A stretch of DNA of 64,000 nt from Strigamia acuminata. Taxonomy: Eukaryota. The DNA lies in contig OX442314.1 in assembly GCA_949358305.1 (NCBI GenBank), positions 4,030,001 to 4,094,000 on the forward strand, in the 5' to 3' direction. The notes below the pieces were generated by a model. It had not been told where the DNA came from and made no database searches. It worked only from the letters and a program-made list of their open reading frames with translations. Positions 12,574 through 36,648 of the stretch are shown here, one piece after another; position 1 is the first letter of the stretch, and every line of letters begins with the position of its first letter. Both the position numbers and the translations under genes were made by a program.

Positions 12574-14125
12574 TGTGACGATTCTACTTTTGGCTGATTT
12601 ATTAGCCATTTTAAGAGATAAATCGGTCGGAACAAGACGTTGTTAAGACTAACAACAACCTAACCGAGATAAGCTACGAAATGTGCGCTAAATGAATAAA
12701 ACAACGAAATGATATAAACTTACGGTTTTACTTGCTTGTTTCTACGAATACAAATGGTTCGGGGTTCTGGATACGTGTAAGCGGCGGCTACACTGGTTGA
12801 GGATCCGGGCGATGCACGAAGGGTACGGCTGACTTTGCGGCATCGTCACAAATAACGCTACGGAGACGTATTTGGTCCGCAGCTCGAATATCTAATAATA
12901 CGAAGAGTCCTTCGTATGGAAAGGAATATTCTGTAGAATATTCCAGGTCAAATAAATACAAAGTGATTAGTGGAATACAACAAATGAATTGTTGTATAAA
13001 TATTAATGGGGCGGGGACAGTCACGACAGTCGACAGGACCGTCGCGGGAGTTGTTGAGGCTCCATCCGCCAGCATGCCTTACGACGACAAGATCTCGTGA
13101 TCAGGCGCCGAGTATTTGTTTGTACGCTTTACATCGCTATCGGTGGTACCAACCACCGGGTAAACATTCCTATGGATTTACCAATTCCAGGATTACCAAT
13201 ACCTGAGTAATTGTTTAACGAAATGTCTTCACGGACAATTCTCACGGGCTACCAACCCGGCGTAGTGTGCCTTTAAATATGCCATTCACCGACCACTAAA
13301 GTACGGAAGGACCTATGATACGCAATTCGCCCTGGAATAGCATTTGTCCGTGTTTGTTTCGTGCTCGGGTGGGACCTCCCGCACACACGCTCTTGGCAGA
13401 GCGTCTGACCCTCGTCCGAGGAATCGCTCAGATAGATGCGACTATCACCGATCATATAGTTTGACATTTATTTAACGGGTTAGTCAATCCCGTGCATGAG
13501 CATTATACTATGCCACCGTATGAAATCCTACTGTCCCTTAGAACAGCTGGCTAACACTACGGGGCCATTTCATGTTGTTAACATGTCTACAAGGTTAGCC
13601 TTCCCCGATGGGCCCTACAACAAGCAATAACGAGATAGTAAGTCTACATATCCATTGAGAGCTGAGGAGGCCTGATGTGTCGATAAGAAAGAGAGAAATC
13701 AAACGATAACCAACAATACATACAAACAATATTCAAATCAAGCCAGGGCCTGGTAGAAAACCAGAGCTTATATAGTTCCTGAGAACAATCAGATTGGCGA
13801 CAGCCAATCAGGTGCCTGGATCGACGGATTCGTGGATCACTAGTCCGGACCTAATAGAGACCGGGGTTCGGACCTAATATGGAATTGGGTCCAGAAGGGT
13901 CCGATTGGTCCCCTTCAACAAGTAAATATAAAATATAATATTGATTCGGCAGAATCAATATTTAAGTAAATAATACTTTATCATGTTTAATAAATAATTT
14001 ATATTTATTCACGTCATTCCGACAATTAATTATAATTCTCGCAATTCATTCGAAAATGCGCGCTTTTAGTCAAATAGCGCCATCTGGCGGCAAATCGGAA
14101 ATTATACGGTTTTATAACCGTCACA
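12574..14125 (-). repeat. 5' LTR of element A
   Basis: Followed on - by AG and the tRNA-Gln PBS. Confidence 0.95.
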
Positions 14126-14961
14126 CCTTGTCTGTTTTGAATTCTAAAAAAAAAATATTTAAAAAAAAAATTAATTTTAGTTGTGACGTGACGTGACTTG
14201 ACGGTTTATTACGTTTGATTCTGTCCTCCATTTCGATGAAGAGCTTTTCTTTGTAGAAGAGTTCGTCGACTTTTTTCGGCATGCGTTTGAGGTCGCTCAT
14301 CGTCTTTTTTGTCCGCACGGATTCCTTCCTCTTTTTGGCTGATGGTTCTGCCAAGTTAGTCGAATTGCTGTTTTAGGTTGTGACAAATTAATATGGCTAT
14401 AAATGCCTATTGTGCCATTATGACGGTAATTTTACTGTATTTGCTTGTAAAACTGATAAGAGTCCTGAATAAAGTTATTTATGATGTTTCAGAAGCAAAG
14501 TTGTTATATTAATAAATATTAATTAACATTACTTCGTGATATCAAAGTATCACGGCCAAAAATACAAGATTTCGTCTGCTAAAACAGCATTCGTCAATGC
14601 GGTATGTCGCCACTAGAAGGCGCTATCGCAAATCAGCGGTAAATTCGAAATACGGAATTAAATGAATAACATTCAATATATTAAATAAGTATTTAATATA
14701 TTGGTTTAGATTATTTAACTTGACAATAATATAAAGTTATATTATTGTATTGAAAGATTGGAAGAAAGAATTGGTCACATTCTTGGAAATGTGACCATGC
14801 GGATTAAAGGATTAAAATGTGTAACTTGGGAATGTGTCCCCGGTATCCATTTCCGGTCCTGAGTATCCAGATCCGGTTTTGCTAAAGGATTAGCATAATC
14901 TGAAGTTGCATCCCCGTATCCACTTCCTGCGGTACGAGATTGGTGGAACTTAATCCCACCA

Positions 14962-15000
14962 AGTATAAAACTCCCTGACAACAGGAAGTTAGTCAGTTCT
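14962..15000 (+). promoter_or_regulatory. Putative LTR core promoter (TATA box + Inr)
   Basis: TATAAAA followed ~30 nt later by TCAGTT; an equivalent TATA is present in the A and C LTRs. Confidence 0.55.
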
Positions 15001-15207
15001 TGATTTCTGGTTATTTGGTATGTTCCGCATGTCAAATAACTGTTTCTTACTCAGGGCATGGGCCTACCGGTCCATGCATAGCATGGCTCTGCTGAGCCAT
15101 GCAACCCCCGTCAACTGAAGGCGAAGTTCGGACTGTTAATGTTTCCGTCAAACGGTCTTGCCGAGGAGAAAGCCTCCCGCATAAGTATCCTCGTGGTCGG
15201 ACAATAG

Positions 15208-15408
15208 AATCACGTGTGATACCAAAGTATTTAGTAACCGTTAGTAGCACTGTTACTGAAAGAGATTGACTCCATCACTTGATGGTGCCAAAGCAGTCTG
15301 CATGCAAAACATGCAGTTACCGCCAGTAGCACTATGTGTTTGGGAAAGTTATATCTCTTCGGTGATGGTGCCAAAGCAGTCTACTTATGAGTAGTATCTC
15401 AGGTGATT
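15208..15408 (+). ncRNA. Structured cis-acting RNA element in the LTR transcribed region (two-fold symmetric internal-loop hairpin)
   Basis: Two CAAAGCAGT / TWACCNYNAGTA internal loops with covarying stems relative to element C; copies at ~35598-35798 (+), 25205-25410 (-) and 32709-32914 (-). Confidence 0.65.
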
Positions 15409-16263
15409 AATTCTGTTGTGCAGAACTGCGGGCTATATCCCCCTGAATACCAGTGCCGTCTCTCACCGCACTGTTAGTTAGGGCACGCGCGATACTGTTC
15501 TGCTCAGCAAGGCGAACTTTGACGGCAATTGTGTGTTGCGATGTTTAACCTTTATTATATTTTGTAGTTGATAAATACACCTTAATTGTTTAAACTTGGC
15601 AACAAGTTAACAACCGAAGTAAGTCACGAGACTTATTTCACTGTATGACGAATCAAATTCGTAACAATAAATTGAATACAATTTATTGAGTTAATTTATT
15701 AAACTCACAACATCGCGAATTAAATATAATTCGCAAGCGGAACCTTGGCGAATAAATGACTTCATTTATTCATTACCAATTTCCAACCCTAGTTGTGGCG
15801 GTGCACATGAGTCAACCGCACCTCTCGGATCGAACCAAACAGCATTACACGGACCATTACACGATACGAACCAGGAACGTGAAGGAACCAGTTCCACGAT
15901 TACGAAGCGCCGACGGAAGCCGCGAGGACACAGCCAGCCCGGCTACGCGTAGATGACATCTTTTAACTCGGTCGAGCGGGCATTTTGCCGTTCCCGAACC
16001 CCGGATCACCAATAACCGTAATCATATTATTTTAGGGCTGTTTTACAGCCAATTTCATGTATAGTTTAACTTGTATTTAACTTGCCAAATGTCGGCATTA
16101 GAATTTGTATAACTTTTAGGATTGATTATATTGTTTAGTAACAATAAATGTCACGTTTTGAGAAACTCTGTTGTCTTTATTATCTCGTATTTTAATCACT
16201 TATTCACGCGACTTATACCCGGTACTATCATGCGATAGGAGTTGTGGTCGTCACCGTCACACG

Positions 16264-16281
16264 TGGAGGTTCCACCGAGAT
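16264..16281 (+). promoter_or_regulatory. Primer binding site complementary to the tRNA-Gln 3' end
   Basis: TGGAGGTTCCACCGAGAT is the reverse complement of ATCTCGGTGGAACCTCCA, the metazoan tRNA-Gln 3' end; 2 nt after the LTR. Confidence 0.88.
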
Positions 16282-17071
16282 AGGTTGCAAAGTTTAAATT
16301 TACCGAATTTAAATAAAAGTGAAAATTGAGATAAATAAAGAGTATAACATTTCAAAACATTTTATATGTCTCTGCTTTTGCGAAGTAGGGAATCCTCTTT
16401 AAGAACGTTGGGATTCGTGAGAACTCTAACATTAAAGGGAAAGTTTCGTTGTGTTGAAAAAACACTTAAAATCGAAGTAAAATTAATTTTAATTTTCACG
16501 AAACAAGGCTTGGTAAAATTCCAATGTTAGTTGAATATTTTCGTAAGAAATATCCAATCAGTAACGAGATTGACCAGGCCAAAGTGCGGACGTAGTAGAA
16601 AACTACTAAAATAAAGGATTAGTTTCCATTTTATCATTGGATAAAATAACTTTCCACCGATAAAGTGTCGAGGGATTAAAGGATTATCGATCCTCGATGC
16701 CACGCGGATCCAGACTACAGACGACCATTCGTATCCAGACCAGACCTGCAGACACGTGCTCCAGTAGCCATCTTGACCACGCCGTCCCGTTCAGTCCCGA
16801 TTCGAATTTTCCACGCCGTAAACCAGCTAAAGTTAAGTGTATTTCACCTATTATTTTAATAAATAATTTAAAGCGCCTTCTCACCCGACGCTAGTTTACT
16901 TGTAGTAGGATTCATTTGATTGTTTAAAATTTATCGATAGTTTAACACGTTTAACCACCACGTGGAGTTTAAGCTTAACCTTATCGAAGTGTATTGTTAT
17001 TTTGAAGTGTATTTTTTTTATATAAAGTGTGTTATCGTTCTTTAGTAATAAAGAATTTAAAAACTTTTATC

Positions 17072-18665
17072 ATGTCTGACGAAAACATTCATATGAATGA
17101 ACGAGAAGTTGATGACGGAAACTTGGAAAATAGTTACGTCCGACTCGAAGACCAAACGGATTTAATTCCGGACGATTTGACAGAGTATTGTCGACTCTAT
17201 AATCTAAATCGGGCTGATTTCAAAACAATAACCGAAGCGGTTAATCATGTACGCGTACTTGAGAAAAGAAATCAGAGAATTAGACCCGATGAAGATGAAA
17301 ATTCGGAGAACGAAAGTCGGCATTCGCGGACTTCACACCGAACCCCACGAAAAACGATTCCCACGAATCGTAAGCTGGACTTTCCCTCTCCTAAAAAGAG
17401 GTTGGGATATCAAGCCCGGATAGTGTCGACTCCACAGCTAAACGATAGAATGGTACGCGAACCATCGTTTAGCCGATCTCGTAGTCAACAAAGTTCTGGA
17501 CAAAGAACACCCAACTCTAATAGTCCTTTAAATCTAGCCAAACCAAGGTCTAGATCGACTAGTGTTAATCGAACGATTAACAATAGTAATTCGGGTTTTA
17601 TCCCCCAAACTTCGGGGAATAGACAAAATGTCTCCCAAAACTCTGAACAAATTAGTAATTCAGGATATGCCTGTTTTCGATGGAAAACAGAAGGACGTGG
17701 CTAAATTTTTAGCTACAGCCAAAACAGTCGCTGTCGCTAAAGGTTTGACTCTGGATGAGATGGTAAAACGCGGAATACCAACTTATTTATCTGGTATAGC
17801 CCACGAATGGCATACCGATAACCTCGACAAATTTGTTGACTGGAAAACTTTCGAAAAGATGTTTTTGGCGGAGTTTGACATGATTCCTGTCACTCGAGCC
17901 CGAAAGCTTCGAAATTTAATCCAGGGCCCAGAAGAGCCACTTTATACATTTCTTTTGAGATTTAAACAAGCTCAAGGATCTTATTCAAAAAGAGATGAAG
18001 CCCCCACTCTTCTCGAGAATTTGAATTTAGTTAGTTACAATCGAATAATCGATAGAGGTCTTTATGAAGAATCATTTAATGACATATTTCAATTTGTCCG
18101 GCAGAATAGGGCTCTTTTCGAAGCCCAAAATGCTAGTGTAGACACTATTGCCAATAAAGAGGACGAAACTGCCCCGTCAAATACTCAAAAAGGTAAAGAC
18201 GCCAGGAGTTCGCGCCCACTCATACGATCTACTCAGACGTTGAACGCCGAACCAGAAGTTGTACCTATGGAATCTGACGAGACAGACAATCTTGAAAACG
18301 ATGTTGGATTCAACAACATGGTATGTGCCCTATCGGAGAAAGCAACTGGAAAATGCTTCCATTGCAATCAACCAGGACACTTTAAGAGGGAATGTCCTTT
18401 GTTACAAAAAAGAAAATTTGTTCAGGACAAGCCCCAAGGTACTGGTAATAATACCAATACCAATCCCGCCTCTGATCTTTTTAAACGACAGAGACAAAAT
18501 TGGGTGACCGCTGAATCTTTGGACCAAAAGCTTGAAGACTTCAAAACTACTATGCAAACTAGTATGACAAAATCCATGTCGGACTTATTCACTAAATTTT
18601 TGGATCCAAAAAATGCGACCACTCCGCCTTTGGCGATTGAAGGTCCACCGACTCCAAAAAACTAG
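17072..18665 (+). CDS. gag: Gag of element B, split into two frames (17072-17704 and 17562/17628-18665)
   Basis: Capsid-like PVFDG...W..F...F and CCHC knuckle CFHCNQPGHFKREC; the two parts are one ORF in element A. Confidence 0.85.
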
Positions 18666-18690
18666 TAGAGGGGGTTACCGAAAACCCCCT
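18656..18690 (+). promoter_or_regulatory. -1 programmed ribosomal frameshift signal (gag-pol)
   Basis: A AAA AAC heptamer, 6-nt spacer, stem AGGGGGTT/AACCCCCT; the -1 frame is open into the pol ORF. Confidence 0.85.
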
Positions 18691-21600
18691 AAAAAACCAG
18701 AGTAATACATTATCCTCAGAAATAGAAAATGTTCTAAACGAAACTCTGAACAAATTAGTAATTCAAGATGAGGAAATTAAACGACCTAATCGTAAAACTA
18801 GGAAAAGGAATCCAAAGTATGTATTTAAGGAACCTTATCCCAACACTCCTTTTTCGATGGAAGAGACTGAAAATCCATTTACATCATTCGATGACGACCT
18901 CTTTCCTGCGGATAAGGGGGACGAATCTTGGCGAGAGTCCTTGAATGCAATAATTGAAAGCGCTGTAAATCCTCCTGTTCGAGAGGAAACCACTAGTTCT
19001 AGTGGAGGAGTATGCGAAAGTTTGGAGGCAATGATGGAAAATTTAGATATCTCCTCGAAATTATCTAGACATCATAGACTTCGTAAATATGTCAAAGAAC
19101 ATCAGCTCAAGAGAGCTGAAGTAGTTGAACGCATCAAACGTTTAGGAAACAGTAGCGACGACCCCCGAATGAAAATAACAATAGGTGGACTCACCTATAA
19201 TGCTTTAATGGATTCAGGAGCCACCCAATGTTTTATTGGATTACAATTACTTGACAGTACTTGTGCCTCCCCTGACTTCATTCAAGATTGCCCCCGAAAT
19301 ATGAAAGTGTGTGCCGTCGGCATAACTCATATCCCGCTAGGACAAATAACCCTTTGTGTTCAATGGGCAGATGGAGTAGAATTCACTCCAATGAATTTCA
19401 TCATTTTAGACCGAAATGTGTGTGGCCTAATTTTAGGGCACAATTTTATGCGTCGTACAACAATTAATTTAAATCCAGCACGAGCTGTATTTGACTGTGA
19501 CAACAAACCTGGTTGGACTGCGCCTTACGTGGATAACGAATTTAATGACAGTCTAGCGAGGTTACGCACACTAAGAGACGACGGAACAGTCACTCATACA
19601 CCCGACAATTGGGAAGAATTGTTGGTGAAAGATTGTGATTGTTCCGACGAGGATAAGACCAAATTACTAGAAGTAATTTCTGGAATCAAGCACGTCTTTC
19701 GGGACAAAGTTGGTTGTACGAACCTTGCCAAACATAAAATTACGTTTAAAAAGGACGCGAAATGGAAAAAACAACCGTTTCGCATGTACAATCCAGCAAA
19801 AATTGCGATTATGACCAAACTAGTTGAAGAGCTAGAAGCAGAGAATCTCATTGAGAAATCTACGGGGCCTTACATAAGTCATCCCGTAATAGTTGCCAAA
19901 CCAAATGGCACATATAGGTTATGTATTGATTTCCGATGGTTAAATGCGATCACCGAAATCAATGCAATCCAAATGCCCAGTATTGATTTGCTCATGCACA
20001 ATACTAATCAGGCAAAATACTTCACCTCACTTGACCTTACAAAAGGATATTATCAAGTAGAGATGGAAGAAGAAGATAAGCAGAAAACTGCTTTCTATAC
20101 TCCGAAAGGCAACTATCAATTTGTACGTATGCCATTTGGGTTATGTAACGCGCCTTGTACATTTCAAGCCCTAATGGAACAAGTTATGGGTGACGCGTTA
20201 TATAAACACGCATTAGTCTATTTAGACGATGTAATTATCTTTTCTCAGACTTGGGATCAACATCTCGGTCACATTAAAGATGTATTAGAACGACTAGACA
20301 AAGCAAACTTATCCGTAAATAAAGAAAAGTCTAAGTTCGGCAGAACTACGCTAAAATTTCTGGGACACTTAATCACTCCGAATGGATTAGCCCCGGATCC
20401 TGATAAAATAGCGTCAGTACGAAAATTTCCCACCCCAAAAACATCGAAAGATGTACAAAGGTTTCACGGGTTGGCAAATTTCTTTAGGAAGTTTATTCCT
20501 AACCACGGTGAAATTGCTACTCCACTGACTAGCATAATGCACGAGAAAGCAACCTTTGTCTGGGGACAAGAGCAAATAGACGCTTTCGAAAGAATTAAAG
20601 ACATTTTATGCGACGAAACTCAAGTTTTGTTAATGCCTAACATGCTCGAACCCTTTGTGATTCTAACAGACGCTTCACATTCAGGATTAGGAGCGGTATT
20701 ATGCCAAGATGTGGATTTTCTTGACAAAAACAAGGACAAATGGATTAAAACTCCAAGACCCGTAGCCTACGCTAGTCGCGTACTTCGAGGAGCCGAGCAA
20801 CGTTACACTACTCCCGAATTAGAGTGTCTGGCGGTAGTATGGGCTGTAGAACGTTTCCGCCCTTACATAGAATACACGTCTTTCACCCTGGAGTCAGATG
20901 CAGAAGCCTTAAAATGGCTAATGGGAACGCCAGAACCTTCTGGTCGTTTTGGCCGATGGGCAATTAAACTGCAATGTGGCGCCTTTAAGATTAAGTATCG
21001 CCGTGGTACTCAAAATCAAGTCGCAGACGCATTTTCAAGAGCTCCTTTGAGTATTGAAGACATTCCGAAGGATGATTACATCGAACCCACAGAAATAACT
21101 CAATTCTGGCCCGAATGGGACGGAAATAAAGAAGTTACTCGTAGAGAAGAACCAAAACCCTGTCAGTTCTTAACAAACGTGTCAGTAAAGTTTGATTATT
21201 CCAAAAAATTAAATAATTCTTTGGAAAAGGGGGAGAAAGGTCATGTAGAACCAGAAACTTTATTTAGTGCTTTAACCGAAGTACTAAGTATAGTTCCTCC
21301 TACCAGAGCAGAAATCATCGAAGCTCAGCTCAAAGACTATGAATGTAGAAAAATAATAACTCACCTAAAATTAGATGAAGTTGAGCAAAGAAGGAATAAG
21401 AAAACTAAGCGATGGATGAAAGACATCAAAGGCTACCAACTAGATTTCAAAGAAAATCATGATAATGAAGATGAGAATAGTAATGACTCTGAAATGTTAA
21501 TCTTCTTCAAACCAACATTTGAAGAAGAATTAAATGATTCCGGCAACGGATTTAAAGCGGTGATTCCACCTTCGTTAGTACGACGAGTGTTGTTCGCATG

Positions 21601-23023
21601 CCACGGACATCCGTTAAGTGGACACGCGGGGATGAGTAAAACGCTCGAACGAGCGAAACTCATCTATTATTGGCCTAAAATGAGCAAAGACACGTGCAAT
21701 TATGTTCGTAGTTGTGTTCATTGCCAACAATACAAACCTAGTCAACACCGCAAAAACAGAGCGAGTTATACTCCTCACAATATGGCACAGCCATGGGAAG
21801 TTCTTTGTTTAGACTTCATGGGTCCCAAACCCGCTGGTCAATACCAACATAAATATATTTTAGTAGGAATCGATCAATGTACTAAATGGGTAGAATTAGC
21901 TCCATTAAGCAAAGCTTCAAGTGAAGCAATTATAACAAAGTTAGGTGATATCGTACATAGATGGGGATACCCCAGGAAAATTATCAGTGATAATGGAAAA
22001 CAGTTCGCATCAACCATCTATGAGGGTTTCTGCAAAAGGCATAACATTAAAATGACGCATATAAGTCCTTATCATGCTCAGGCCAACCCCACAGAACGGG
22101 CAAACAGGGATATCAAAATAATGCTTGCAATTTATTCTGATGTGCACTCTCACTGGCCACGTTTTCTGAATGAATTTGCATTTGCATCCAGAACGGCAAA
22201 ATCCGAAGCAACCGGATCGACGCCATTTTTATTAAATACGGGAAGAATAGTAACACTACCTTTCGACCCGCGAATTATTCAACACGCGAATAAATTCGAT
22301 AAAAATAACCCTGAGGAATTCGTGTTTAATTTACTCGGGATTTTACGAAGAGCACACCAAGAGATGCACCGTAGGATCCAACTAAATTACGAGAAACACG
22401 ACAGAATTCACCGTAATAAATTTCATATTTGCAAATATGAAGTAGGTGATTTAGTCTGGAAAAATACACATATTCTTTCCAATCAAGACAAAGGCATTAC
22501 TAAAGGATTTGCTGAAAAACGAGACGGACCGTGGGAAATCACGGCCGTATTAACAGGAGGTGCATACGCCTTACGAAAATTATTAGATGACTCAATTGAA
22601 CCATCGATAAATACGGATGATCTCACCCCGTATATCCCTTCATACCCGATTGAGACATGGACTCTGGGTCAGAAAAAAGGAAAACTGAAAGATCATCCAA
22701 ACCCTGATTGGATGTCGGCAAATTCCGAATTTAACGAATCTAATTCACAAGAATTAGATAATCAAGATATGGAAGAAACCTCTCGTGAAAATCTTGAAAA
22801 AGATATGGAAGAACTTCCTCAAGAAAGTCTTGAACAAGAAGAAAGAATAATTCCTACCTCAAATGAAAATGGAAACGAGATTATCGATCCACGAAGTAAT
22901 AACTCAAATAAACGGAAGCGAACAGCTGACCTTCCGGAGATAATCTCGAGACCGAAAAGAACTTCGAAGCCAAATCCGAAATATACTACGGATTTTGTGC
23001 AGATGATTCAAGAACGTCGTTAA
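18662..23023 (+). CDS. pol: Pol polyprotein (aspartic protease, RT, RNase H, integrase), intact
   Basis: LMDSGAT, LCIDFR/MPFGL/YLDD, TDAS...ELECLAV, HHCC, LDF...SDNG...E, GPW; first ATG at 18857. Confidence 0.97.
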   Translation, partial: LVEGVTENPLKNQSNTLSSEIENVLNETLNKLVIQDEEIKRPNRKTRKRNPKYVFKEPYPNTPFSMEETENPFTSFDDDLFPADKGDESWRESLNAIIESAVNPPVREETTSSSGGVCESLEAMMENLDISSKLSRHHRLRKYVKEHQLKRAEVVERIKRLGNSSDDPRMKITIGGLTYNALMDSGATQCFIGLQLLDSTCASPDFIQDCPRNMKVCAVGITHIPLGQITLCVQWADGVEFTPMNFIILDRNVCGLILGHNFMRRTTINLNPARAVFDCDNKPGWTAPYVDNEFNDSLARLRTLRDDGTVTHTPDNWEELLVKDCDCSDEDKTKLLEVISGIKHVFRDKVGCTNLAKHKITFKKDAKWKKQPFRMYNPAKIAIMTKLVEELEAENLIEKSTGPYISHPVIVAKPNGTYRLCIDFRWLNAITEINAIQMPSIDLLMHNTNQAKYFTSLDLTKGYYQVEMEEEDKQKTAFYTPKGNYQFVRMPFGLCNAPCTFQALMEQVMGDALYKHALVYLDDVIIFSQTWDQHLGHIKDVLERLDKANLSVNKEKSKFGRTTLKFLGHLITPNGLAPDPDKIASVRKFPTPKTSKDVQRFHGLANFFRKFIPNHGEIATPLTSIMHEKATFVWGQEQIDAFERIKDILCDETQVLLMPNMLEPFVILTDASHSGLGAVLCQDVDFLDKNKDKWIKTPRPVAYASRVLRGAEQRYTTPELECLAVVWAVERFRPYIEYTSFTLESDAEALKWLMGTPEPSGRFGRWAIKLQCGAFKIKYRRGTQNQVADAFSRAPLSIEDIPKDDYIEPTEITQFWPEWDGNKEVTRREEPKPCQFLTNVSVKFDYSKKLNNSLEKGEKGHVEPETLFSALTEVLSIVPPTRAEIIEAQLKDYECRKIITHLKLDEVEQRRNKKTKRWMKDIKGYQLDFKENHDNEDENSNDSEMLIFFKPTFEEELNDSGNGFKAVIPPSLVRRVLFACHGHPLSGHAGMSKTLERAKLIYYWPKMSKDTCNYVRSCVHCQQYKPSQHRKNRASYTPHNMAQPWEVLCLDFMGPKPAGQYQHKYILVGIDQCTKWVELAPLSKASSEAIITKLGDIVHRWGYPRKIISDNGKQFASTIYEGFCKRHNIKMTHISPYHAQANPTERANRDIKIMLAIYSDVHSHWPRFLNEFAFASRTAKSEATGSTPFLLNTGRIVTLPFDPRIIQHANKFDKNNPEEFVFNLLGILRRAHQEMHRRIQLNYEKHDRIHRNKFHICKYEVGDLVWKNTHILSNQDKGITKGFAEKRDGPWEITAVLTGGAYALRKLLDDSIEPSINTDDLTPYIPSYPIETWTLGQKKGKLKDHPNPDWMSANSEFNESNSQELDNQDMEETSRENLEKDMEELPQESLEQEERIIPTSNENGNEIIDPRSNNSNKRKRTADLPEIISRPKRTSKPNPKYTTDFVQMIQERR

Positions 23024-23610
23024 AAGATTCTAAATATAAAAAGAATATTCTAAAAGATATTGATTTAAATCAGATATTGAATATTCAAATCGAAAATTCG
23101 CGAAGTCACCTGGTAACTTATGACCCCGGGTGGAGAGTAAAAGATTCGTTCTATATTCAGTCTTCTAACACACACGTGAGAGAAGAAGAACTTCGTCGAA
23201 TTCAACAAAAATCACGAACAATTGCGTCGATATTGTTAGCCATTAAACAAAGAATACAGGTATGATGATTATACATATGAATTAATATATATATCATGAC
23301 ATCTCTTTATATTTAAAGAAATACAAACCAGCGGAATTCGTTTATTAGCGGCGGAGGATTTGAAAGCCACGTGCTCTAAACTCCAAGTTATCGTCGAAGC
23401 GACTATACTTAGAATTCTACAAGCTACGCTTCTAAAGGAAGCAGGACATTTTCGTAAGTTCGATAAAATTATCAATACACGAAAGTGTAAAGTTGTAACG
23501 AATTATAATTATAAAATTCGTAAATTGAGTTACGCGTCTTCTCAATAGAGGGCGCGCGCATACAAAAGTATTGCAAATAAAACTAAAACGTTTTCTATAT
23601 TTGTAGAATT

Positions 23611-26600
23611 ATGGTCAAGAAGATACCAATTAAAAAGCGGCGAATTGTGATTCAGTCGAGCTCTTCGGAGGAAGACGATACACCCACGGTCAACCCGACC
23701 ATCGTAACAATCCCGGGAGCGCCAAATACTCCTATTGTGCTCGACCAAAAAGGATGGGACATATTAACATGGGCCCGAAACAACCCAGAGGCTCTCCCAA
23801 AGGAAATTCGTCCAAAAACGGCTGTACCCAAAACGGCGATGGAGGTTACCCAAGAAACCTTCATTATACCAAAAAAGGACAGTTTCTCCAAAAGCCATCC
23901 TTTACAGCCGGTCCATAAACCAAGTACGAGTCGAATGAACGATTCATCGACCTCTCATGAGAGAAGTCTGGACGAGATTGTCCAATTAGAGGCGAATCGA
24001 AATCCCGAAGGAAATCGCCACCAAGACAGCAAACGCAAACAGCGAGAATACGTTCATTACGACTCGCCGCCACCCACGACTTCGCGCGAAGTAGTGTATA
24101 CCCCTAGATATAATACGGCTAGAGGAAAACGTACGTTTGTGTCCACGAGAGCCCCCAAACTACAGCCGATGACTGTTCAACAAAGAGCAGCTAATAAGCA
24201 AGAAAAGGCACTGCGTCGAAAAGCCGCTTGCGATCGTGACTTAGAATTGGGAATTCCACACGACAATTTGGAGCTCGCGAAGGGCGAAATACCGTGCCCC
24301 TTCTGTTTCGGGGTTGGTTGGATGTCCGGCTCCGGGACAGGGTGCCATTTAGCATCATGCGGGAATTGTCTCGGATCAAAACGACGATTAAAAATCCAAC
24401 CCTGGAACCTGTGACGGTGACGACCACAACTCCCATTTAACAATGGTACCGGGAAGAGATCGCAATAAATAAACAGTGAATACAATACGAGATAAATACA
24501 AGACAGTTTATTGTTGGCAAACAATATGGATGAGCTAAATTATACATAGGACTAATGCCGACATTTGGCAAGTTAAATCAGCTATTAAACTATACAAAGA
24601 ATTGGCCAACTGGCCCTAGAATAATATCACTACGGGTCTGGAATATGGGAGCGGTTTCCCCATCGCTCGACCTGATTATAGATGTCATCTTAAGCCGGAT
24701 GGCTGTGTCCTGGAGTCCGATACGGCTTCGCTGGTTTCCTTGGTTCGCTGTGTGAACTATCGCACGTCGATAAATCGAATGATCTGAGCATTGCGGTTGA
24801 CTTTGTCTGCACCGCCACAACTTTGGGAGGATATTGGTGTAAGTAAATGTATTCATTTACTTATCAATATTCCACTTATGAATTATATTTAATTCATATC
24901 GTTGTGAATTCTTATTTAGATATTTCGGGAATAAGTTGTCGTCAACTTATCGGTTATATTGAGTTCAATATGAGATTAAGTCTTCTGACTTGATTTTGGT
25001 CCAACTGGTTGTCGAGTTTAAGTTTTGCTGTTATAAATAAAATGAAGATTAAGCTTCCCGTCGCAACACACAATTGCCATCGATTAGAATATACGCCTTG
25101 CCATGCAGAACGGTATCAAGCGTCCCCGGCGTCGCAGCACGGTCGTCCATCGAGTGGTTGACGGTACCACGTACACAGGGGTCGATAGCTCGCGGCTCCG
25201 CACAGCAGTTTTATCTCTCGCGGTACTAATAATAGACCGACTGCTTTGGCATCGAATACCATGAGAATCAGCTTGCCAAACACTTGGTGCTACTCGTGGT
25301 TACTGTAAAACAGACTGCTTTGGCACCATCAGGTGAAGGAACCGATTCTCAACAATACCGATGCTACTCGTGGTAACGGAATACGTTCATACCGAAAAAG
25401 ACAACTTGGTCCTGTCCGGAGGATACTGAATTGCACAACGGCGGGTTCTCCTTCGGCGTCGCAACCGTAGACTGTAACATTTATGCAACATAATAATCCC
25501 AGCACTTCGACTTCAATTGCCGGCGGTGGCATGATTCTGTAGAATCATGCAACGGTTCTTTGCGAATAAATCAACAAAGAACCAAAAGGTTTTTTACGTG
25601 AACAACGAATCATATTTCATAAGTAACAATACCAAACAGAAAATAATCAAACAGAGCTGCAGAATGGCCGGTTGTTTGGGTTTATATAACCTGACTGGAT
25701 TAAGGATTAATCCAGTTATCCAATTGGAACATGGGTTCCACGAATCCCTCCAATCCCGTATCACCGGAAGTGGATACGGAGGAACAATGTGCTAATTCTC
25801 ACCACAACCGGAACTGGATACCCAGGACCGGAAATGGATCCACCAATCAGATCTATTGGTTGATCGATTGATCACCAAATGTCCTGTCCCGCAGAAAATG
25901 GAAGTTACATTGTATTTAACATCACAAGACATTAATATATCTTTATATTAATGTTCACAAAGCTTCGTTTCATTCTAGTAAATATAGTTTTATATTTATT
26001 TACATGTTTTATATTCATATCTTGAATTTGCCGCTAAATCGTAATCGCGCCATCTTGTGGCAACATTGCGCATTGACAAATGCGGTTTTAGCAGACGACT
26101 CTTCGTGATTCGGCCGGAATCCTTTGATATCAAGTAGGAATGAGTGTTTATTCTTAATAAACGAACATCTTTGTATTTGAAACATCATAAATAACTTTAT
26201 TCCAGACATTTATCAGTTTTACACAGAATATCTTCGAGATATCATGATAATGGCGCAACAGCGCTTCTTTCTAAGAAAATAGGCATTTATAGCCATTGTA
26301 AACCGTCACACATCCCCCTTAATAACACAATTATATAAAATTTTATAGAGTTTTCGTTATTCTCCTAATTAGCATAAATGCTATTTTCGGACTTGATGTA
26401 TCTTGGAGATACCGTGACTTCCAATTTCGAATTTGAGCTTACATAAACTAACTTGAATTATCTAAGTTCTGATTTTCTGCCGAAATAATCTTTTCTAATA
26501 GCCTAAATTCAAGTCCAGAATTTATTTCCAAGTCTTCTTTTTGAAGAAACTTTCGTCATACATAAAATCATCATTTGTGTTATCACAAAATATTTATTTC

Positions 26601-29600
26601 ATATGCCTAGTCAGATGTATCGCTATAAATATACAATAAATAGCTTTTAGATGATAAGAGTTGACAATTAAGAAATCATAATTGTCCCCCTTAATTGTCA
26701 TGACCGGAGTCACTTGGTATTCTTTGTACAATTGACTAATTTAATTAAACTAGTTGTCTTAATAATGTAGCATTACTTTTCAAAATTTTGTTAATTCTAA
26801 CTTTTATATTTTGTCCCCCTTTTCTTTAGAAGAGAGGTCATGATTTTTAGAAGAGGATTTTCTGTTTACACTATAATCGGGGAATCTTTGTGTATCATAT
26901 CATGTTAATCAACATGATTCTTTGCTAAATATTGAGCTCGCATATTTGCAAATTTCCGAGATCTCTCAGCCTGCTGTACTGATTTTTTTTCGACGTTTTT
27001 TCTTTGGGCAGTTACACACAGTGTACTCACTTGGCAGTGTAAATGACCGTGACGACCCAACTTTTTGTTTTAGGTCATCTCTGGAAAACCATACATGAAT
27101 GGGACCCTCATTGGAAAACCATACGTGGAAAGGACCCATATTTGGAATTGTGAAATCCCGCAACAAACGAGGGGATCTATATTTGACTCTAAGTCGTGGA
27201 ACTGATGATTGGAAACCTGGGTTTTCAGTCAGTTTTTGAACATGTTGGTTTGTACTTGAAGTTTCTTCATCACCAGCTGGACTTGGTGACCGAAAACGCT
27301 TTTTTGAAGTTCTTAATTCCTCTCGTTGAGATGAATTATTCTGGATATTGCAGGGTTGCTTTCCAGACGCAAATTGTTGTATCTCCGTCAGATTGACGAC
27401 TGGGACGGGTTTTAGTCGTTGGTTACGGTATTGATTTCGAAATACGAATTGTTGCGCTTCGTTTATATTTTTAAATTCAGCTGAATTTAACTGGTATTGT
27501 TTACAATACTGTTCGAATTGATACCGGATCTCCCGTGGGTTAGTCAAAAAACTTTCTTTTTTAGGTTTAAAATCATTCTCATTATCGTGTTGGTAATACT
27601 TTTTCAAGGGAAAAGTTTGCTTGACCTTTTTTCGATTTGAAATGGGCGTTAGGTAGAATTGTCTTGGCTGGGGACTCTTCTTGGTAGACAAATCATACGT
27701 CCGCAAACATGAGTTTGTGATCGGCGATCGGGCACGTTGTTGTACGTTATTTGACTGCAAATGTTTGTTTGGAGTCCGAATATCTTTCCTTTGCGTTGAT
27801 ATTGGTGGCCCAAAACTTTTGTTTACGGTTCCCAATTCTTTTGATAGCGGTAGGTTAATCGACAGATTAAGGCTAGCCACATATCGTTGTGCTTCAGCTG
27901 GATTAGCATATCGAACTGAAATTAGCTGATCTCGATTGTAAACGAGTTTTAATTTGTTCTGAACAACCGACTGGTTAGTTAACGAACTCTCTGGACGAGA
28001 ATTATTAGGTTTATAATTCTCTTCCCCCTTATCTACCGAATTAGGTGGTTTAAACTTTTCTAACTTAGATCCCCTACTGGATGTTTGAAACATAGTATGA
28101 GAATCTTGATTCACTAAGTTTCGGCTGTATGTTTGTGGATTCCGTACTGGATCTTGATGTGAAGATTGAGATTGGGTACGGTCTCGCCAGTTCCTAGCTT
28201 TTACATAGTCTGAAGCTTCGATTATATTTTTAAACTTGGTTTTATCCAGTCCATGACGATTACAATACAGAGTAAAATGATCGGGAATCTTTTCTGTTTG
28301 ATCGCCAAGTGGTACAGAACTTAAATTTAAGTTTGTCTGCTTATTATTTCCTTTTGGATCGATCATATTCAATGGTTTTTGAGCCATAAAAAAATTCAAA
28401 ATCTGACGATTTTAATTCTTTAATTTATAAAGAAGACGAATATAATACACTTTTCAACAAGAAACACTTCTAAACTTTACTTTTGACAAAATAAAATTAA
28501 ACTTCGCGTTTGTTTGACACGTGTTAGCTTTTGCAGGTTACACGGCACACAAAATTCGAATCGTGACTGAAATCGGGACGGCGTGGTCAAGATGACTCTG
28601 GAACACGTCTTCTGGTCTGGTCTGGATGCGAATGATCAGTATCTGATCTGGTCCTCCTTTAATAGCAGGGGGCTGGGGATCCCTAGATCTCCCAACTTCT
28701 GATTGGCGGATGTTAGTGTCGGCCAATGGTATAAAGGACGTTACATCTATTTAGTAGTTCTCTACTAAGTCCGTTCCCTTCGAGATTCAATTTTACCGAT
28801 AAAATAAAATTCCTTCGGGAAGACATTCGTAAAATATTGTATTTTTCAAATGAAAATAAAATAAACTTACTTCAATCTTCTTGAACTTTGGGATTTTTAC
28901 CAATCCAAATAATTAAATAACTTTTCTTCAAAAAATATTTTTCTTTGATTATTCCGTTTAGTGTGTAATATCATTACAACCACAGTTTTAATAAAGTTTT
29001 CTCAAACTCTCAATTTTTCTTATTCTTATTCAATTATCGTTCAAATAATCATTCCTTTGTAATTGAAATCTATTTTCGATTCCCAACATTGTGTATTCAT
29101 TTCCAATAGGAAGAATAATTTGACCAAGTCTTTACTTTTTCGGGTTTAAATTCCATTTTTCGAGTGTGAAAAAAATAAATTTTCACCATCCATCTCCCCC
29201 TTTTTTAACAAATTTTTTTAACAAATAAAAATTCGTTAAAATTCTTTAAATTTGTTTTGCGAGAAAAATTATCTAATTCTCTAATCTTCCAAAAGAAAAT
29301 ATTCGAAATTTTACTTTAAACGATAAAGTTATTGGTACAAATGTGTACTTGTTTTTCGGGAGAAAACTATTCGACAATCCTTTAGACTTTTGGGTAAAAA
29401 TTATTCATCAAATCTTTCTTTTTTGATGACAATTGCTTTGATTTTTCGAAAGAAAATATCTAGCTAAATTCCACTTTTCCTGAGCGGACAATTGTTTTCA
29501 CAATTAGTTATTCCTTTGCGATATTTACGAAGGACGTGTCTTTGATTATTCGTTTTAATAATTTTCGTCCCCCTTATCTCTAATAACGAGATGTTTTTGC

Positions 29601-32600
29601 AGAGATCTTTTATCTTTTGAATGAAAGAATATTTAAATCTCAATTGTCGTAAATACCTTCATCTGCTGCAGCATTTCCTCAATTTGAACTTTTCAAATGA
29701 AAAGACAAATCTGGAGAACTTTCACTGTCAAACTTCTATTCCTATCGCGCCAAAATTCGTAATTCACTGGTTTGGAATTCCGTATAACACGTGACACAAT
29801 AACAGTATCGATGTCACAATTAAGCAGTTTACTACTCGGTCCGCGCGAGGACATGTAAATTACTTTTTTCCGATAAAAATAATTTTTCTTTGAAAAATAT
29901 TTGAAATTGATTTTTCACAACTACTTTTGAATGAAATAAAATGAAGTTATTCCAACTTTTCGTTAATTGCTCACACATAACATTCCCTTTACTGTGGGAT
30001 TTGCATCGAAATTCCATTTTTAAAGAACCTTTCTTTTACTTATCGCAAATAAAACATATTCAATCGTTTTTCTGATTAAACTTTAACACGTAAATTACGA
30101 ACGAAATATATGATGACATTCCATTAACCTTTAGGAAAATTGACTAAATTCTTAATTTTTAGAGAAAAATAATGTATCTAGAATCTTTCCTTTTCCGAAT
30201 AAAATCTATGTTCAAAATAGAAGATAAATCTTGTGCAATTCTTAGTTTTTTCGAATGGAAAAATACAACTTTTCATCAGCGGTGATTTATTTGATTTTTC
30301 CGAAAGAAAAATAATTACTTTGAAACTTATTTTCTTCGTTTAAATCAGCTATCTGATTTTAAAGCTTCAATCCAATTAAAAAATATTCGCTCCGTAAATA
30401 TTTCATGTGGCAAAGTTCATAGCCACAAATGGATTTGTTATTCCGGTTTTAAGAAATCATGTGGGAAAATGTCCGATTAGATTACTAAAAATATTCGTTG
30501 TTTTTCAAACAGCTAAATTTCATTTAGAAATTCTCAAAATTTGGGAGACCCAAATATCGTTGGAAACTTAAAACACTGTTAAATTTCCGAAAGGAAAGAT
30601 TGAATGAAATCCTTTTACTTTTCCGAGGGAAAGCGTTTATCGTGATTCGTAACTTTCAATGTAAAAAATACTATTCTACGTGGTCGGCAACTTCATTCGC
30701 CGCCATTTTATATTTTCTTAATTTCCATTGTCCCGAAGGAAAAAATGTACTTTTTGTGAAAATAGTTAATTCCTTCAAATAAAGGTAATATTCATTTCGA
30801 TTTGCAAATCTTTTCTGCGAAATGGAGTGTGTTGTTTTTCTCCAACAACTAAATTATCTTTGGTACCGATGGCAGTGGAAAAATTAGTTCGCGACACTTA
30901 AATAAATCTCTACGAACCTTCTGTAACATTTCTCCGCTGTCTTTTATCTGTTGTCCGCCATAATTTCCAAGCATTCGTTCGCACCTTGCGTTGAAGGTTT
31001 GAGTAGCTTCCCTGCTGCGTTTGATACGGAGATCGACGCGTATTGCTATGGCGCGTGGTCGCTGGCTATCGGTGTCGACGTACAGTTACAAGAAACTTAA
31101 TTTCTTGTAAATATTTCCAAATAGTTGCGGTGTTTTCTTCGTTTTAACTTTTCAGGTGGAAAGATAAATTCGTAAGAAGTCCGCCTTCTAAACTTGTATG
31201 TTTTTAGCTTTTCGAAATAAAACAAACTTCGAAAAAAATATCTGTATTCTTATTTCACTCGAAACTTTTTTTTGATTTCTTATTTAAAATACTTCGTATT
31301 CCTTAAATTGTCGAACGAAAATAGTAAAGAGAGTTCACTAAACGTTTCCATTTCGTCAGTTTAACTTTTCACATGAAAATATAAACTGAAAATCTATTTG
31401 TCTGTTTTAACTAAAATTTTTTTGTTAATATCGGATTCAAGATTCGCTTTTGCAATTCGATCGAATTAATTTGCAACCTATTTCAGTGATCGTGTGATAG
31501 GTCTATAACTTCCGAAATTCCTAGTTAAAGGACTGTTTTGGTGTTTCTCAAGAAAATAAACATGGTTTGAAACTTGTCTGTTTTTTAACTAAATCTTTTA
31601 GTTAAATATTTATCTCAAAATTCACTTTTACAATTCTATCGAATTTAATTGCAACCTAATCTCGGTGGGACCTCCACGTGTGAGATTAGGTGGTAGTCTT
31701 TGAAATCCCTAAAATCTTCAAACGAAAATAATGAAGGAAAATCTACTACGTATTTCTATTTCATCAGTTTAACTTCTTCACATGGAAATATAAACTGAAA
31801 ATTTAATCTGTCTATTTTTAACTTAAATCTTTTAGTTAAATATTTATCTCCAATATTCACTGTTGCAATTCAATCGAATTTAATTGCAACCTAATCTCGG
31901 TGGGACCTCCACGTGTGACGGTGACGACCACAACTCCCATTTAACAATGGTACCGGGAAGAGATCGCAATAAATAAACAGTGAATACAATACGAGATAAA
32001 TACAAGACAGTTTATTGTTGGCAAACAATATGGATGAGCTAAATTATACATAGGACTAATGCCGACATTTGGCAAGTTAAATCAGCTATTAAACTATACA
32101 AAGAATTGGCCAACTGGCCCTAGAATAATATCACTACGGGTCTGGAATATGGGAGCGGTTTCCCCATCGCTCGACCTGATTATAGATGTCATCTTAAGCC
32201 GGATGGCTGTGTCCTGGAGTCCGATACGGCTTCGCTGGTTTCCTTGGTTCGCTGTGTGAACTATCGCACGTCGATAAATCGAATGATCTGAGCATTGCGG
32301 TTGACTTTGTCTGCACCGCCACAACTTTGGGAGGATATTGGTGTAAGTAAATGTATTCATTTACTTATCAATATTCCACTTATGAATTATATTTAATTCA
32401 TATCGTTGTGAATTCTTATTTAGATATTTCGGGAATAAGTTGTCGTCAACTTATCGGTTATATTGAGTTCAATATGAGATTAAGTCTTCTGACTTGATTT
32501 TGGTCCAACTGGTTGTCGAGTTTAAGTTTTGCTGTTATAAATAAAATGAAGATTAAGCTTCCCGTCGCAACACACAATTGCCATCGATTAGAATATACGC

Positions 32601-34630
32601 CTTGCCATGCAGAACGGTATCAAGCGTCCCCGGCGTCGCAGCACGGTCGTCCATCGAGTGGTTGACGGTACCACGTACACAGGGGTCGATAGCTCGCGGC
32701 TCCGCACAGCAGTTTTATCTCTCGCGGTACTAATAATAGACCGACTGCTTTGGCATCGAATACCATGAGAATCAGCTTGCCAAACACTTGGTGCTACTCG
32801 TGGTTACTGTAAAACAGACTGCTTTGGCACCATCAGGTGAAGGAACCGATTCTCAACAATACCGATGCTACTCGTGGTAACGGAATACGTTCATACCGAA
32901 AAAGACAACTTGGTCCTGTCCGGAGGATACTGAATTGCACAACGGCGGGTTCTCCTTCGGCGTCGCAACCGTAGACTGTAACATTTATGCAACATAATAA
33001 TCCCAGCACTTCGACTTCAATTGCCGGCGGTGGCATGATTCTGTAGAATCATGCAACGGTTCTTTGCGAATAAATCAACAAAGAACCAAAAGGTTTTTTA
33101 CGTGAACAACGAATCATATTTCATAAGTAACAATACCAAACAGAAAATAATCAAACAGAGCTGCAGAATGGCCGGTTGTTTGGGTTTATATAACCTGACT
33201 GGATTAAGGATTAATCCAGTTATCCAATTGGAACATGGGTTCCACGAATCCCTCCAATCCCGTATCACCGGAAGTGGATACGGAGGAACAATGTGCTAAT
33301 TCTCACCACAACCGGAACTGGATACCCAGGACCGGAAATGGATCCACCAATCAGATCTATTGGTTGATCGATTGATCACCAAATGTCCTGTCCCGCAGAA
33401 AATGGAAGTTACATTGTATTTAACATCACAAGACATTAATATATCTTTATATTAATGTTCACAAAGCTTCGTTTCATTCTAGTAAATATAGTTTTATATT
33501 TATTTACATGTTTTATATTCATATCTTGAATTTGCCGCTAAATCGTAATCGCGCCATCTTGTGGCAACATTGCGCATTGACAAATGCGGTTTTAGCAGAC
33601 GACTCTTCGTGATTCGGCCGGAATCCTTTGATATCAAGTAGGAATGAGTGTTTATTCTTAATAAACGAACATCTTTGTATTTGAAACATCATAAATAACT
33701 TTATTCCAGACATTTATCAGTTTTACACAGAATATCTTCGAGATATCATGATAATGGCGCAACAGCGCTTCTTTCTAAGAAAATAGGCATTTATAGCCAT
33801 TGTAAACCGTCACAAACCCCAAGTTTGTTTCATTCGTGGTTAAAGGGTTGTTCGATCCAGTACCCCGAAAATGGGCAACCTGCCACCTTTGTAAAGCTTT
33901 ACTATCTAACGATGGCAAAGCTGTATACGAGGATCCCGAATTTATGAATTCGCGAAGAACGCCCCTTGGCCTTCAAATGGGTTTGGAAAAAATGCCAAGT
34001 GTTGTCTGCGTAGATAATGCGACTCAAACGGACGAAGCCGCATTAGTCCCCATGCCAAACGTTGTGGAACACGGAATTTCGAACGAGTTCTTAATTGAAC
34101 CTTACCAAGTTCCTCCGAACACCAAGATAGGACAGTTATTTGTTTGGGAGGTTGAATACTACTACCCCATCGTGGCTCGACTTGCAATTATCATTTCTCG
34201 TCAATTGGTTACGGGCCTACCCGATCAAATAACAGTAGGGTATGTGACCAGGATCATGCAAATGATCTTGAATCCACGTCGCGTTGAGGGCTTCAACATT
34301 TTGGAGCACCTTTGGAATTTGCTCGTGGGAAAAATCGCAGCTGAGATGAAAAATCAAATATGCGAAGGCTGGATTTTGGTTTTGCCCCCGGTGATTGACA
34401 TCTACGAAAATCTCAAGAAAATGATCGATGAAGAAGACGGATCGACTGATCAGCCTGAAGCAGGGGATAAAGCACCCGAGACTCCCATCGCCACGGAAGT
34501 TGTTGCGACCGCTGCATTCTTCATAGATCGGCAACCGGAAGAACCTCTTCCCGCCAAGAAACGTGGCAAAAGCTCCTCTTCGAAGGATAGGCAAAAGCCC
34601 GCCACGGAGACCGAAAAAGGTCAAGAATAA
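23611..34630 (+). CDS. ORF3 of element B (536 aa when rejoined: 23611-24409 + 33819-34630), Cys-rich putative nuclear protein, interrupted by element C
   Basis: Removing C and one AACC TSD restores the frame (...KIQPWN-PKFVSFVVKG...); CPFCFGVG, CGNCLGSK and CHLC motifs; basic KKRR and KKRG clusters. Confidence 0.8.
24410..26310 (-). repeat. 3' LTR of element C
   Basis: Direct repeat of 31914-33814. Confidence 0.95.
26966..28387 (-). CDS. Element C protein (~473 aa): two copies of the Gag N-terminal module in basic low-complexity sequence, no capsid
   Basis: IPDHFTLYCNRHGLDKTKFKNIIEASDYV and FEQYCKQYQLNSAEFKNINEAQQFV both match B IPDDLTEYCRLYNLNRADFKTITEAVNHV; C-terminal PKKKRRKK. Confidence 0.75.
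   Translation of the reverse strand: MAQKPLNMIDPKGNNKQTNLNLSSVPLGDQTEKIPDHFTLYCNRHGLDKTKFKNIIEASDYVKARNWRDRTQSQSSHQDPVRNPQTYSRNLVNQDSHTMFQTSSRGSKLEKFKPPNSVDKGEENYKPNNSRPESSLTNQSVVQNKLKLVYNRDQLISVRYANPAEAQRYVASLNLSINLPLSKELGTVNKSFGPPISTQRKDIRTPNKHLQSNNVQQRARSPITNSCLRTYDLSTKKSPQPRQFYLTPISNRKKVKQTFPLKKYYQHDNENDFKPKKESFLTNPREIRYQFEQYCKQYQLNSAEFKNINEAQQFVFRNQYRNQRLKPVPVVNLTEIQQFASGKQPCNIQNNSSQREELRTSKKRFRSPSPAGDEETSSTNQHVQKLTENPGFQSSVPRLRVKYRSPRLLRDFTIPNMGPFHVWFSNEGPIHVWFSRDDLKQKVGSSRSFTLPSEYTVCNCPKKKRRKKISTAG
31914..33814 (-). repeat. 5' LTR of element C
   Basis: Followed on - by CG and the PBS. Confidence 0.95.
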
Positions 34631-34994: not shown

Positions 34995-36648
34995 TGTGAC
35001 AAATTAGCAATAGATGGCGCCACTAGTACTAGCGGCAAATTCAACCTCGAGCTTACTATTTCCCATATAAATAGTTCACAAACATATTATTATGTTTGAT
35101 ACGACCAAATGTGATTCACATCGATAATATAAAGGTATATTATCAATACTTAAGAAGATAAAAATAGGCGTTACTGCTTTATCACCGATACATGACGAGG
35201 AACACGGTTTTGAATGTATTTCCGTTCTGTGTATCCATTTCCTGTCCCCGGTATCCAGTTCCGGTTTATGCTAAAAGATTAACATAATCCCAATTTGCAT
35301 CTCCGTATCCACTTCCTGCGATACGAGATTGGTGGAACCTAATCCCACCGAGTATAAAACTCCCTGACAACAGGAAGTTAAGTTAGTTCTTGATTTCTGG
35401 TTATTTGGTATGTTCCGCATGTCAAATAACTGTTTCTTACTCAGGGCATGGGCCTACCGGTCCATGCATAGCATGGCTCTGCTGAGCCATGCAACCCCCG
35501 TCAACTGAAGGCGAAGTTCGGACTGTTAATGTTTCCGTCAAACGGTCTTGCCGAGGAGAAAGCCTCCCGCATAAGTATCCTCGTGGTCGGACAATAGAAT
35601 CACGTGTGATACCAAAGTATTTAGTAACCGTTAGTAGCACTGTTACTGAAAGAGATTGACTCCATCACTTGATGGTGCCAAAGCAGTCTGCATGCAAAAC
35701 ATGCAGTTACCGCCAGTAGCACTATGTGTTTGGGAAAGTTATATCTCTTCAGTGATGGTGCCAAAGCAGTCTACTTATGAGTAGTATCTCAGGTGATTAA
35801 TTCTGTTGTGCAGAACTGCGGGCTATATCCCCCTGAATACCAGTGCCGTCTCTCACCGCACTGTTAGTTAGGGCACGCGCGATACTGTTCTGCTCAGCAA
35901 GGCGAACTTTGACGGCAATTGTGTGTTGCGATGTTTAACCTTTATATTTTGTAGTTGATAAATACACCTTAATTGTTTAAACTTGGCAACAAGTTAACAA
36001 CCGAAGTAAGTCACGAGACTTATTTCACTGTATGACGAATCAAATTCGTAACAATAAATTGAATACAATTTATTGAGTTAATTTATTAAACTCACAACAT
36101 CGCGAATTAAATATAATTCGCAAGCGGAACCTTGGCGAATAAATGACTTCATTTATTCATTACCAATTTCCAACCCTAGTTGTGGCGGTGCACATGAGTC
36201 AACCGCACCTCTCGGATCGAACCAAACAGCATTACACGGACCATTACACGATACGAACCAGGAACGTGAAGGAACCAGTTCCACGATTACGAAGCGCCGA
36301 CGGAAGCCGCGAGGACACAGCCAGCCCGGCTACGCGTAGATGACATCTTTTAACTCGGTCGAGCGGGCATTTTGCCGTTCCCGAACCCCGGATCACCAAT
36401 AACCGTAATCATATTATTTTAGGGCTGTTTTACAGCCAATTTCATGTATAGTTTAACTTGTATTTAACTTGCCAAATGTCGGCATTAGAATTTGTATAAC
36501 TTTTAGGATTGATTATATTGTTTAGTAACAATAAATGTCACGTTTTGAGAAACTCTGTTGTCTTTATTATCTCGTATTTTAATCACTTATTCACGCGACT
36601 TATACCCGGTACTATCATGCGATAGGAGTTGTGGTCGTCACCGTCACA
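34995..36648 (+). repeat. 3' LTR of element B (1654 bp; U3 differs from the 5' LTR)
   Basis: Preceded by the PPT; followed by TSD AGGT. Confidence 0.93.

Follow-up and report, generated by a model that had tools for sequence, protein, structure and literature searches.

Excerpts of the published descriptions present the MPMV/SRV CTE as a two-fold symmetric stem-loop of ~130-175 nt that binds the NXF1:NXT1 dimer (PMC4330390, PMC7551171), carries the NXF1-binding word AAGACA in its loop (PMC4174252) and probably arose through duplication of a cellular element with a single loop (PMC4338338). Partial accounts of two further systems place the RxRE in the HTLV LTR, where it binds multimeric Rex (PMC3504254), and report that the MusD transport element (MTE) uses a kissing loop as well as a pseudoknot (PMC3362945). 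RNA export and RNA selection by Ty3/gypsy elements are poorly mapped except in yeast and Drosophila. Here we describe, in LTRs of a little-known gypsy lineage, what appears to be a real and previously undescribed structured RNA module, which combines a known motif with a known architecture. At the level of the sequence, the motif is doubled, its arms are complementary within each family and its spacing is constant; it is present in elements B and C, and absent from element A. A compact, symmetric and covarying module that is common to a helper and its parasite would offer a direct handle for probing and pull-down. A description of such a rod was absent from the open full-text literature as covered by titles and abstract openings, a scope outside which subscription papers, Repbase and Dfam lie.

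Elements B, C and A and the flanking repeat

The window (the whole 64-kb stretch of DNA analysed) contains a ~4-kb tandem repeat that houses three LTR elements, termed A, B and C (Table 1). Element B is a Ty3/gypsy element with gag in two frames, pol and a third ORF (ORF3) that is split by the insertion of C; its layout is standard, with a primer-binding site (PBS) that we take to be a tRNA-Gln complement, a polypurine tract, and TATA and poly(A) signals. The closest protein to B Pol is P0001 (48%), in addition to proteins labelled Strigamia maritima that match at 52% and 48% over about half of the query. In a tree of 32 rows, from which the two Strigamia rows were omitted for want of an aligned RT stretch, B clusters with P0001 (100/99). 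Element C, of 9.4 kb, is a non-autonomous relative nested in B on the minus strand and has no pol; its single ORF is akin to the N-terminus of B's Gag, and its LTR end and PBS are common to B. Element A is a further non-autonomous relative with two identical 1549-nt LTRs, whose PBS and Gag homology are shared and which lacks the rod motif. In element orientation, the target duplications are AAGG for A, AGGT for B and GGTT for C. Both B and C are multi-copy families in the public DNA runs of one organism. An assignment of the flanking repeat as a histone cluster was rejected, because the repeat carries an IBR/RING ORF.

Several additional features were observed in these elements. The insertions of A and B lie ~250 bp apart within one ~4-kb tandem unit. 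The U3 parts of B (14379-14994 vs 34995-35384) differ, its R-U5 parts are near-identical and its target duplication is perfect; B is possibly a chimeric element that arose via recombination of two insertions at one tandem-repeat site. The primer-binding region of C is duplicated (~31680-31700, minus strand), and its ORF is preceded by a promoter-like stretch with CCAAT boxes (28650-28720, minus strand). The interior of A (~10020-12150, minus strand) has four dispersed repeats of 150-170 nt with predicted hairpins, for which the best Rfam match, RT-17, is sub-threshold (E 0.015), and a PBS-like sequence lies within the LTR of A (~13365-13380, minus strand). A truncated LTR remnant (46780-47350, minus strand) is 71% like the U3 of A; the word AGATGGCG, presumably YY1-like, recurs in this remnant and in the U3 of A, of C and of the B 3' LTR.

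All but two of the differences between the B 5' and 3' LTRs lie at or upstream of 14994, 30 nt past the TATA box. The preliminary description had spoken of few differences, which is true downstream of 14994, whereas the U3 parts are strongly different. A divergence that ends at 14994 suggests subfamilies with exchanged U3 and marks the start of R. Past the TATA box, the AATAAA listed in Table 1 is alone in having an equivalent close to the end of the LTR in each of B, C and A; the two others of B sit within AU-rich hairpin stems. From these borders we infer an R region of ~1.15 kb with the rod inside, which would give two rods per transcript. A pattern search found no strong splice donor in the B leader, which counts against a role in the export of intron-retaining RNA. 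The same part of the LTR shows a run of AU-rich hairpins (15640-15830, plus strand; 24790-24990 and 12810-13010, minus strand), for which z is about -5 to -7 in each of B, C and A; after this run comes a small hairpin block (15791-15820) that all three retain.

Table 1. Coordinates of the features in the window
Feature	Position	Strand	Comment
Element B 5' LTR	14379..16261	+	Ty3/gypsy; target-site duplication AGGT
TATA box, B 5' LTR	14964..14971	+	putative U3/R border near 14995
Whole predicted rod with basal extension, B 5' LTR	15201..15419	+	
Partial third loop copy in B	15218..15227	+	stem and CAAAG; opposite AGTA-stem 15390-15398
Outer module, 5' strand	15232..15246	+	closing stem, 2-nt bulge, short helix, AGUA
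Central arm, 5' strand	15247..15288	+	42 nt; 42 in C
Inner module, CAAAGCAGU strand	15289..15297	+	
Apical hairpin	15298..15316	+	7 bp in B, 4 bp in C; tip non-conserved
Inner module, AGUA strand	15317..15328	+	
Central arm, 3' strand	15329..15371	+	43 nt; 42 in C
Outer module, CAAAGCAGU strand and closing stem	15372..15383	+	
Putative poly(A) signal AATAAA	16143..16148	+	
B primer-binding site	16264..16281	+	
B gag, two overlapping frames	17006..18665	+	Retrotrans_gag, zinc knuckle
B pol	18641..23023	+	RT, RNase H, integrase
B third ORF (ORF3), C inserted within	23587..34630	+	basic clusters, three CxxC pairs; candidate partner protein
Element B 3' LTR	34995-36648	+	
Rod, B 3' LTR	35591..35809	+	
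Element C LTRs	24407-26316 (3'), 31911-33820 (5')	-	1910 nt each, 99.8% identical
Rod, C 3' LTR	25211..25404	-	
Rod, C 5' LTR	32715..32908	-	
Gag N-terminal domain	B 17120-17281; C 28172-28333, 27413-27574; A 8814-8975		helical model
Tandem ~4-kb units	36653-62000		IBR/RING ORF 39663-40427 (-), internal satellites

The predicted rod and its variation

The B and C sequences quoted in the preliminary description were all recovered at their positions. A window search on both strands yielded exactly eight occurrences of CAAAGCAGT and exactly eight of TWACCNNNAGTA in 64 kb, all confined to the four B/C LTRs, compared to ~0.007 copies of a 9-mer expected per LTR. The two modules of the rod are 67-75% alike, so the symmetry arose by a duplication that predates the split of B and C. 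They are separated by arms of 42/43 nt in B and 42/42 nt in C, and single-base deletions among the listed variants bring the 3' arm of B to 42 nt; between the closing stems, the rod measures 152 nt in B and 143 nt in C. A partial third copy of the loop lies just outside the modules in B, and this form is absent from C.

The B segment 15195-15435 folds at -81.4 kcal/mol (z -4.1) and the C rod at -72.8 kcal/mol (z -2.5), with none of 200 shuffles equally stable in either case. An alternative fold of two local hairpins was rejected, as the cross-module rod is better by 18 kcal/mol in B (-81.4 vs -63.6) and by 28 kcal/mol in C (-72.2 vs -44.6). The symmetric hairpin drawn in the preliminary description is borne out, with the qualification that the inner loop of the C copy in the window has a pair probability of just 0.19 because a 7-bp helix competes. 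Nevertheless, the forced rod of C lies just 0.6 kcal/mol above the minimum; the variants that disrupt the competing helix (25274, 25278 and 25322) are minor. It is very likely that the B and C LTRs encode a two-fold symmetric RNA rod.

B and C are identical at 781 of 1267 positions (62%) in the rod-bearing part of the LTR. The native arm duplexes reach -40.1 kcal/mol in B and -37.8 kcal/mol in C, each bettered by none of 500 shuffles, whereas swapped B/C arms reach -23.1 and -29.3 kcal/mol. The compensatory stem change proposed between B and C is thus sustained, on a covariation basis of two independent families, and the reported difference between G15361 and A35751 is real and converts U-G to U-A. 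RNAalifold on the four LTR copies gave 83 pairs, nine of which changed on both sides, seven of these nine in the rod; the inner half of the arm was not recovered. When the 65 stem pairs of B were mapped onto C, 26 were the same, nine changed on one side and eight on both, 18 were broken and four gapped. The broken pairs indicate that the middle of the arm has shifted register, so the predicted shape of the central arm is conserved and its register is not. Among the 14 identical blocks of at least 9 nt between B and C, a count that includes the rod, the second longest (21 nt) lies in the rod. Further identical blocks at 15925-15978 and 16058-16101, among them a 28-nt block and, at 15951, an 11-mer that is nearly palindromic, are possible dimerisation or factor sites.

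Where family variants changed a stem, pairing was maintained in 18 of 22 cases for C (all 36 rows) and in 14 of 17 for B (28 rod rows among the 40 listed of 79). With loop registers that were fixed after the variants were known, the count of kept pairs alone gave P 0.03 against the null for B, among the rows listed, and a non-significant P 0.19 for C. Four of the 51 computed stem pairs of C vary on both sides, whether linked or not (P 0.02). Judged from end distances, one X3 contig (record 21) appears to carry double changes at 15293/15324 (G-C to A-U) and 15282/15335 (A-U to U-A); this same-contig reading comprises two double changes and one mismatch repair.

Loop modules and the probable sarcin-ricin motif

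Each loop is predicted to be mostly paired. The closing G-C is followed by a 2-nt bulge, an A-U and a C-G pair, and a C.A mismatch that is U-A in one variant; beyond it come a purine-pyrimidine pair (G-C, A.C or A-U among variants), a variable position, AGUA opposite AAA, a G-C closure and one spare C. A reading of the loops as paired modules around an AGUA/AAA core is therefore preferable to one as open 12x9 loops. AGUA/AAA, a feature unmentioned in the preliminary description, is one of four sarcin-ricin strings according to an excerpt of PMC1865062. A search for RGUA facing RAA found AGUA/AAA in all four modules (4/4), provided that the CC step has one C bulged out. A descriptor of the flanking helices matched the loops of B and missed those of C, where the distal helix is mismatched and variants repair mismatches. 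As modelled, a sarcin-ricin geometry of the loops is likely. Apart from the rod, a candidate canonical GAA/AGUA pairing lies at 15168/15184, where other helices compete.

The loop strands are identical in the window, as described earlier, but the family has variants in them: RNA C>U at 25243 and at 25317, RNA C>A at 25322 and G>A at 15293. Three of the 34 letters held to be fixed vary (P 0.18). In the C core (AGUA, AAA), none of 14 sites varies, compared to 33 of 211 overall, a non-significant difference (P 0.085).

Searches for relatives of the module were made in several collections. A covariance model built from the inner module scored nothing above 13 bits beyond the four copies on which it was trained. 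No Rfam family matched the LTR rods at gathering score, and with E up to 5 there was none on the B rod and one sub-threshold antisense match on the C rod; the Rfam search suggested earlier thus assigned the rod to no family. Pattern scans gave no match in viral, metagenome and prokaryote collections, and a protein-led locus search of viral contigs found no relative. Metagenomes yielded 47 distant loci (best segments of 22-42% identity), and neither loop strand occurred in their 159,802 bases.

Candidate roles and comparison with described systems

Our analysis tentatively places first the reading that the rod is the response element for a B-encoded protein, with ORF3 as the candidate, which exports the full-length RNA, and that C retains the rod to exploit B. 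The doubled motif in the element RNA would fold into the predicted rod, with two oppositely oriented sarcin-ricin-type loops 42-43 nt apart; the rod would dock a dimer of the B-encoded protein, putatively ORF3, which in turn might export or stabilise the full-length RNA in a Rex-like manner, and the non-autonomous C would keep the rod for the use of B's protein. The fixed spacing, the two-fold symmetry and the recurrent protein-binding motif point to a dimeric binder, and the fact that B and C have the rod, which the recently mobile A lacks, favours a lineage-specific partner over a general host one. ORF3 has K/R clusters, three CxxC pairs and NES-like patterns, although the K/R clusters and NES-like patterns are of a loose and common kind; a homology search gave no informative homologue, the sole match being a repetitive protein with a best stretch of 35 residues. 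In a bolder form that we consider rather unlikely, an invertebrate Ty3/gypsy lineage would possess its own Rev/Rex-like system, in which a zinc-binding basic ORF3 dimer sits on a twin sarcin-ricin ruler, R is a kilobase long and the response element has been hijacked by a non-autonomous family. If ORF3 is the partner, regulated Rev-like export would reach past complex retroviruses.

Two other readings are close rivals of export by a B-encoded protein. The second in order, which is possible but less probable, takes the rod as a packaging or dimerisation signal for B's Gag that C keeps in order to be packaged by B. Autonomous B and non-autonomous C both have the rod and A does not, C has the LTR end and PBS of B, and the helical N-terminal domain of Gag is present twice in the C ORF; however, this domain is also found in rod-less A, and its model (helices, pLDDT 81) gave no meaningful match to a known fold. 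A signal within the LTR would, moreover, be expected to mark solo-LTR and subgenomic RNAs too, and the palindromic tip is not conserved. A kissing loop at this tip was rejected, since the tip is not the same in B and C and varies more than any other part of the rod; what survives of the protein-binding module proposed earlier is a selected symmetric rod that probably binds protein. A packaging signal would account for the helper specificity of large non-autonomous elements. Third in order, and doubtful, is a true CTE analogue that directly binds the host NXF1:NXT1 dimer. The absence of AAGACA from the B and C LTRs speaks against it, as does A, which lacks the rod despite having the same host, whereas the two-fold symmetry, the two loops and the length of 143-152 nt fit the CTE description, and non-homologous NXF1-dependent elements exist according to an excerpt of PMC4338338.

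The remaining readings are weaker. It is improbable that the rod serves as one domain within an IRES, or within a region that controls translation, in the 2.1-kb leader: C keeps the rod though no long ORF lies within 3.5 kb of its 5' LTR, the C ORF has a promoter-like stretch of its own and no Rfam IRES matched, against which stand the 25 ATGs in the 2077-nt leader, the many conserved structured blocks of R-U5 and the occurrence of loop E motifs in viral IRESs. The likeness of the modules, whose symmetry did come from duplication, would agree with an ancient tandem duplication that was retained by chance or for factor sites in the DNA, with an incidental RNA fold, as would the presence of TGCCAAA in another conserved block. 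Yet the pairing is cross-module and family-matched, and variants keep pairs better on the sense than on the antisense strand (15 vs 11 of 22, and 11 vs 7 of 17 among the listed rows), which renders this explanation very improbable. Least probable of all is a new self-cleaving ribozyme formed by the loops, suggested by their conserved letters within an LTR and by the precedent of retrozymes, non-autonomous elements whose LTRs reportedly contain hammerhead ribozymes. The catalytic role that had been left open gained no ground, as no known ribozyme matched in Rfam with E up to 5; CUGAnGA is absent from the LTR sense strands, the structural motif accounts for the conserved letters and the layout of B is standard.

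Compared to known systems, the rod combines features of several. Like retrozymes, the non-autonomous C has a conserved RNA motif in its LTRs; however, the rod contains no hammerhead, the motif is also present in autonomous B and C is 9.4 kb long. Like the sarcin-ricin/loop E motif, the modules have AGUA opposite AAA, by prediction between helices, but here the motif is predicted to be doubled head-to-head inside a longer conserved module, which adds a bulged C, a C.A mismatch and a 2-nt bulge. As a predicted long stem-loop that putatively lies in the R region of an LTR, the rod resembles the HTLV RxRE, a long stem-loop of the U3/R or R/U5 region for which the excerpts report a multimeric, element-encoded binder; the RxRE is not described as two-fold symmetric in the excerpted text (PMC3504254), and ORF3 has no homology to known export proteins. 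Given its putative export role, the rod would share with the MTE the character of a structured export element of an LTR retrotransposon, whereas the MTE relies on a kissing loop and pseudoknot and belongs to a mouse retrovirus-like element. The likeness to the MPMV/SRV CTE claimed earlier stands for shape and size: the predicted fold, though weaker at the inner loop of C, is two-fold symmetric, duplication-made and has two internal loops, and its 152/143 nt lie within the 130-175-nt range. By contrast, the LTR sense strands of B and C lack the AAGACA word, the predicted loops being of the sarcin-ricin type instead; hence the rod may act in the manner of a CTE without being one. The CTE sits in a betaretrovirus 3' UTR, whereas the rod sits within an invertebrate Ty3/gypsy LTR, and would mean that the CTE architecture was reached convergently with another building block.
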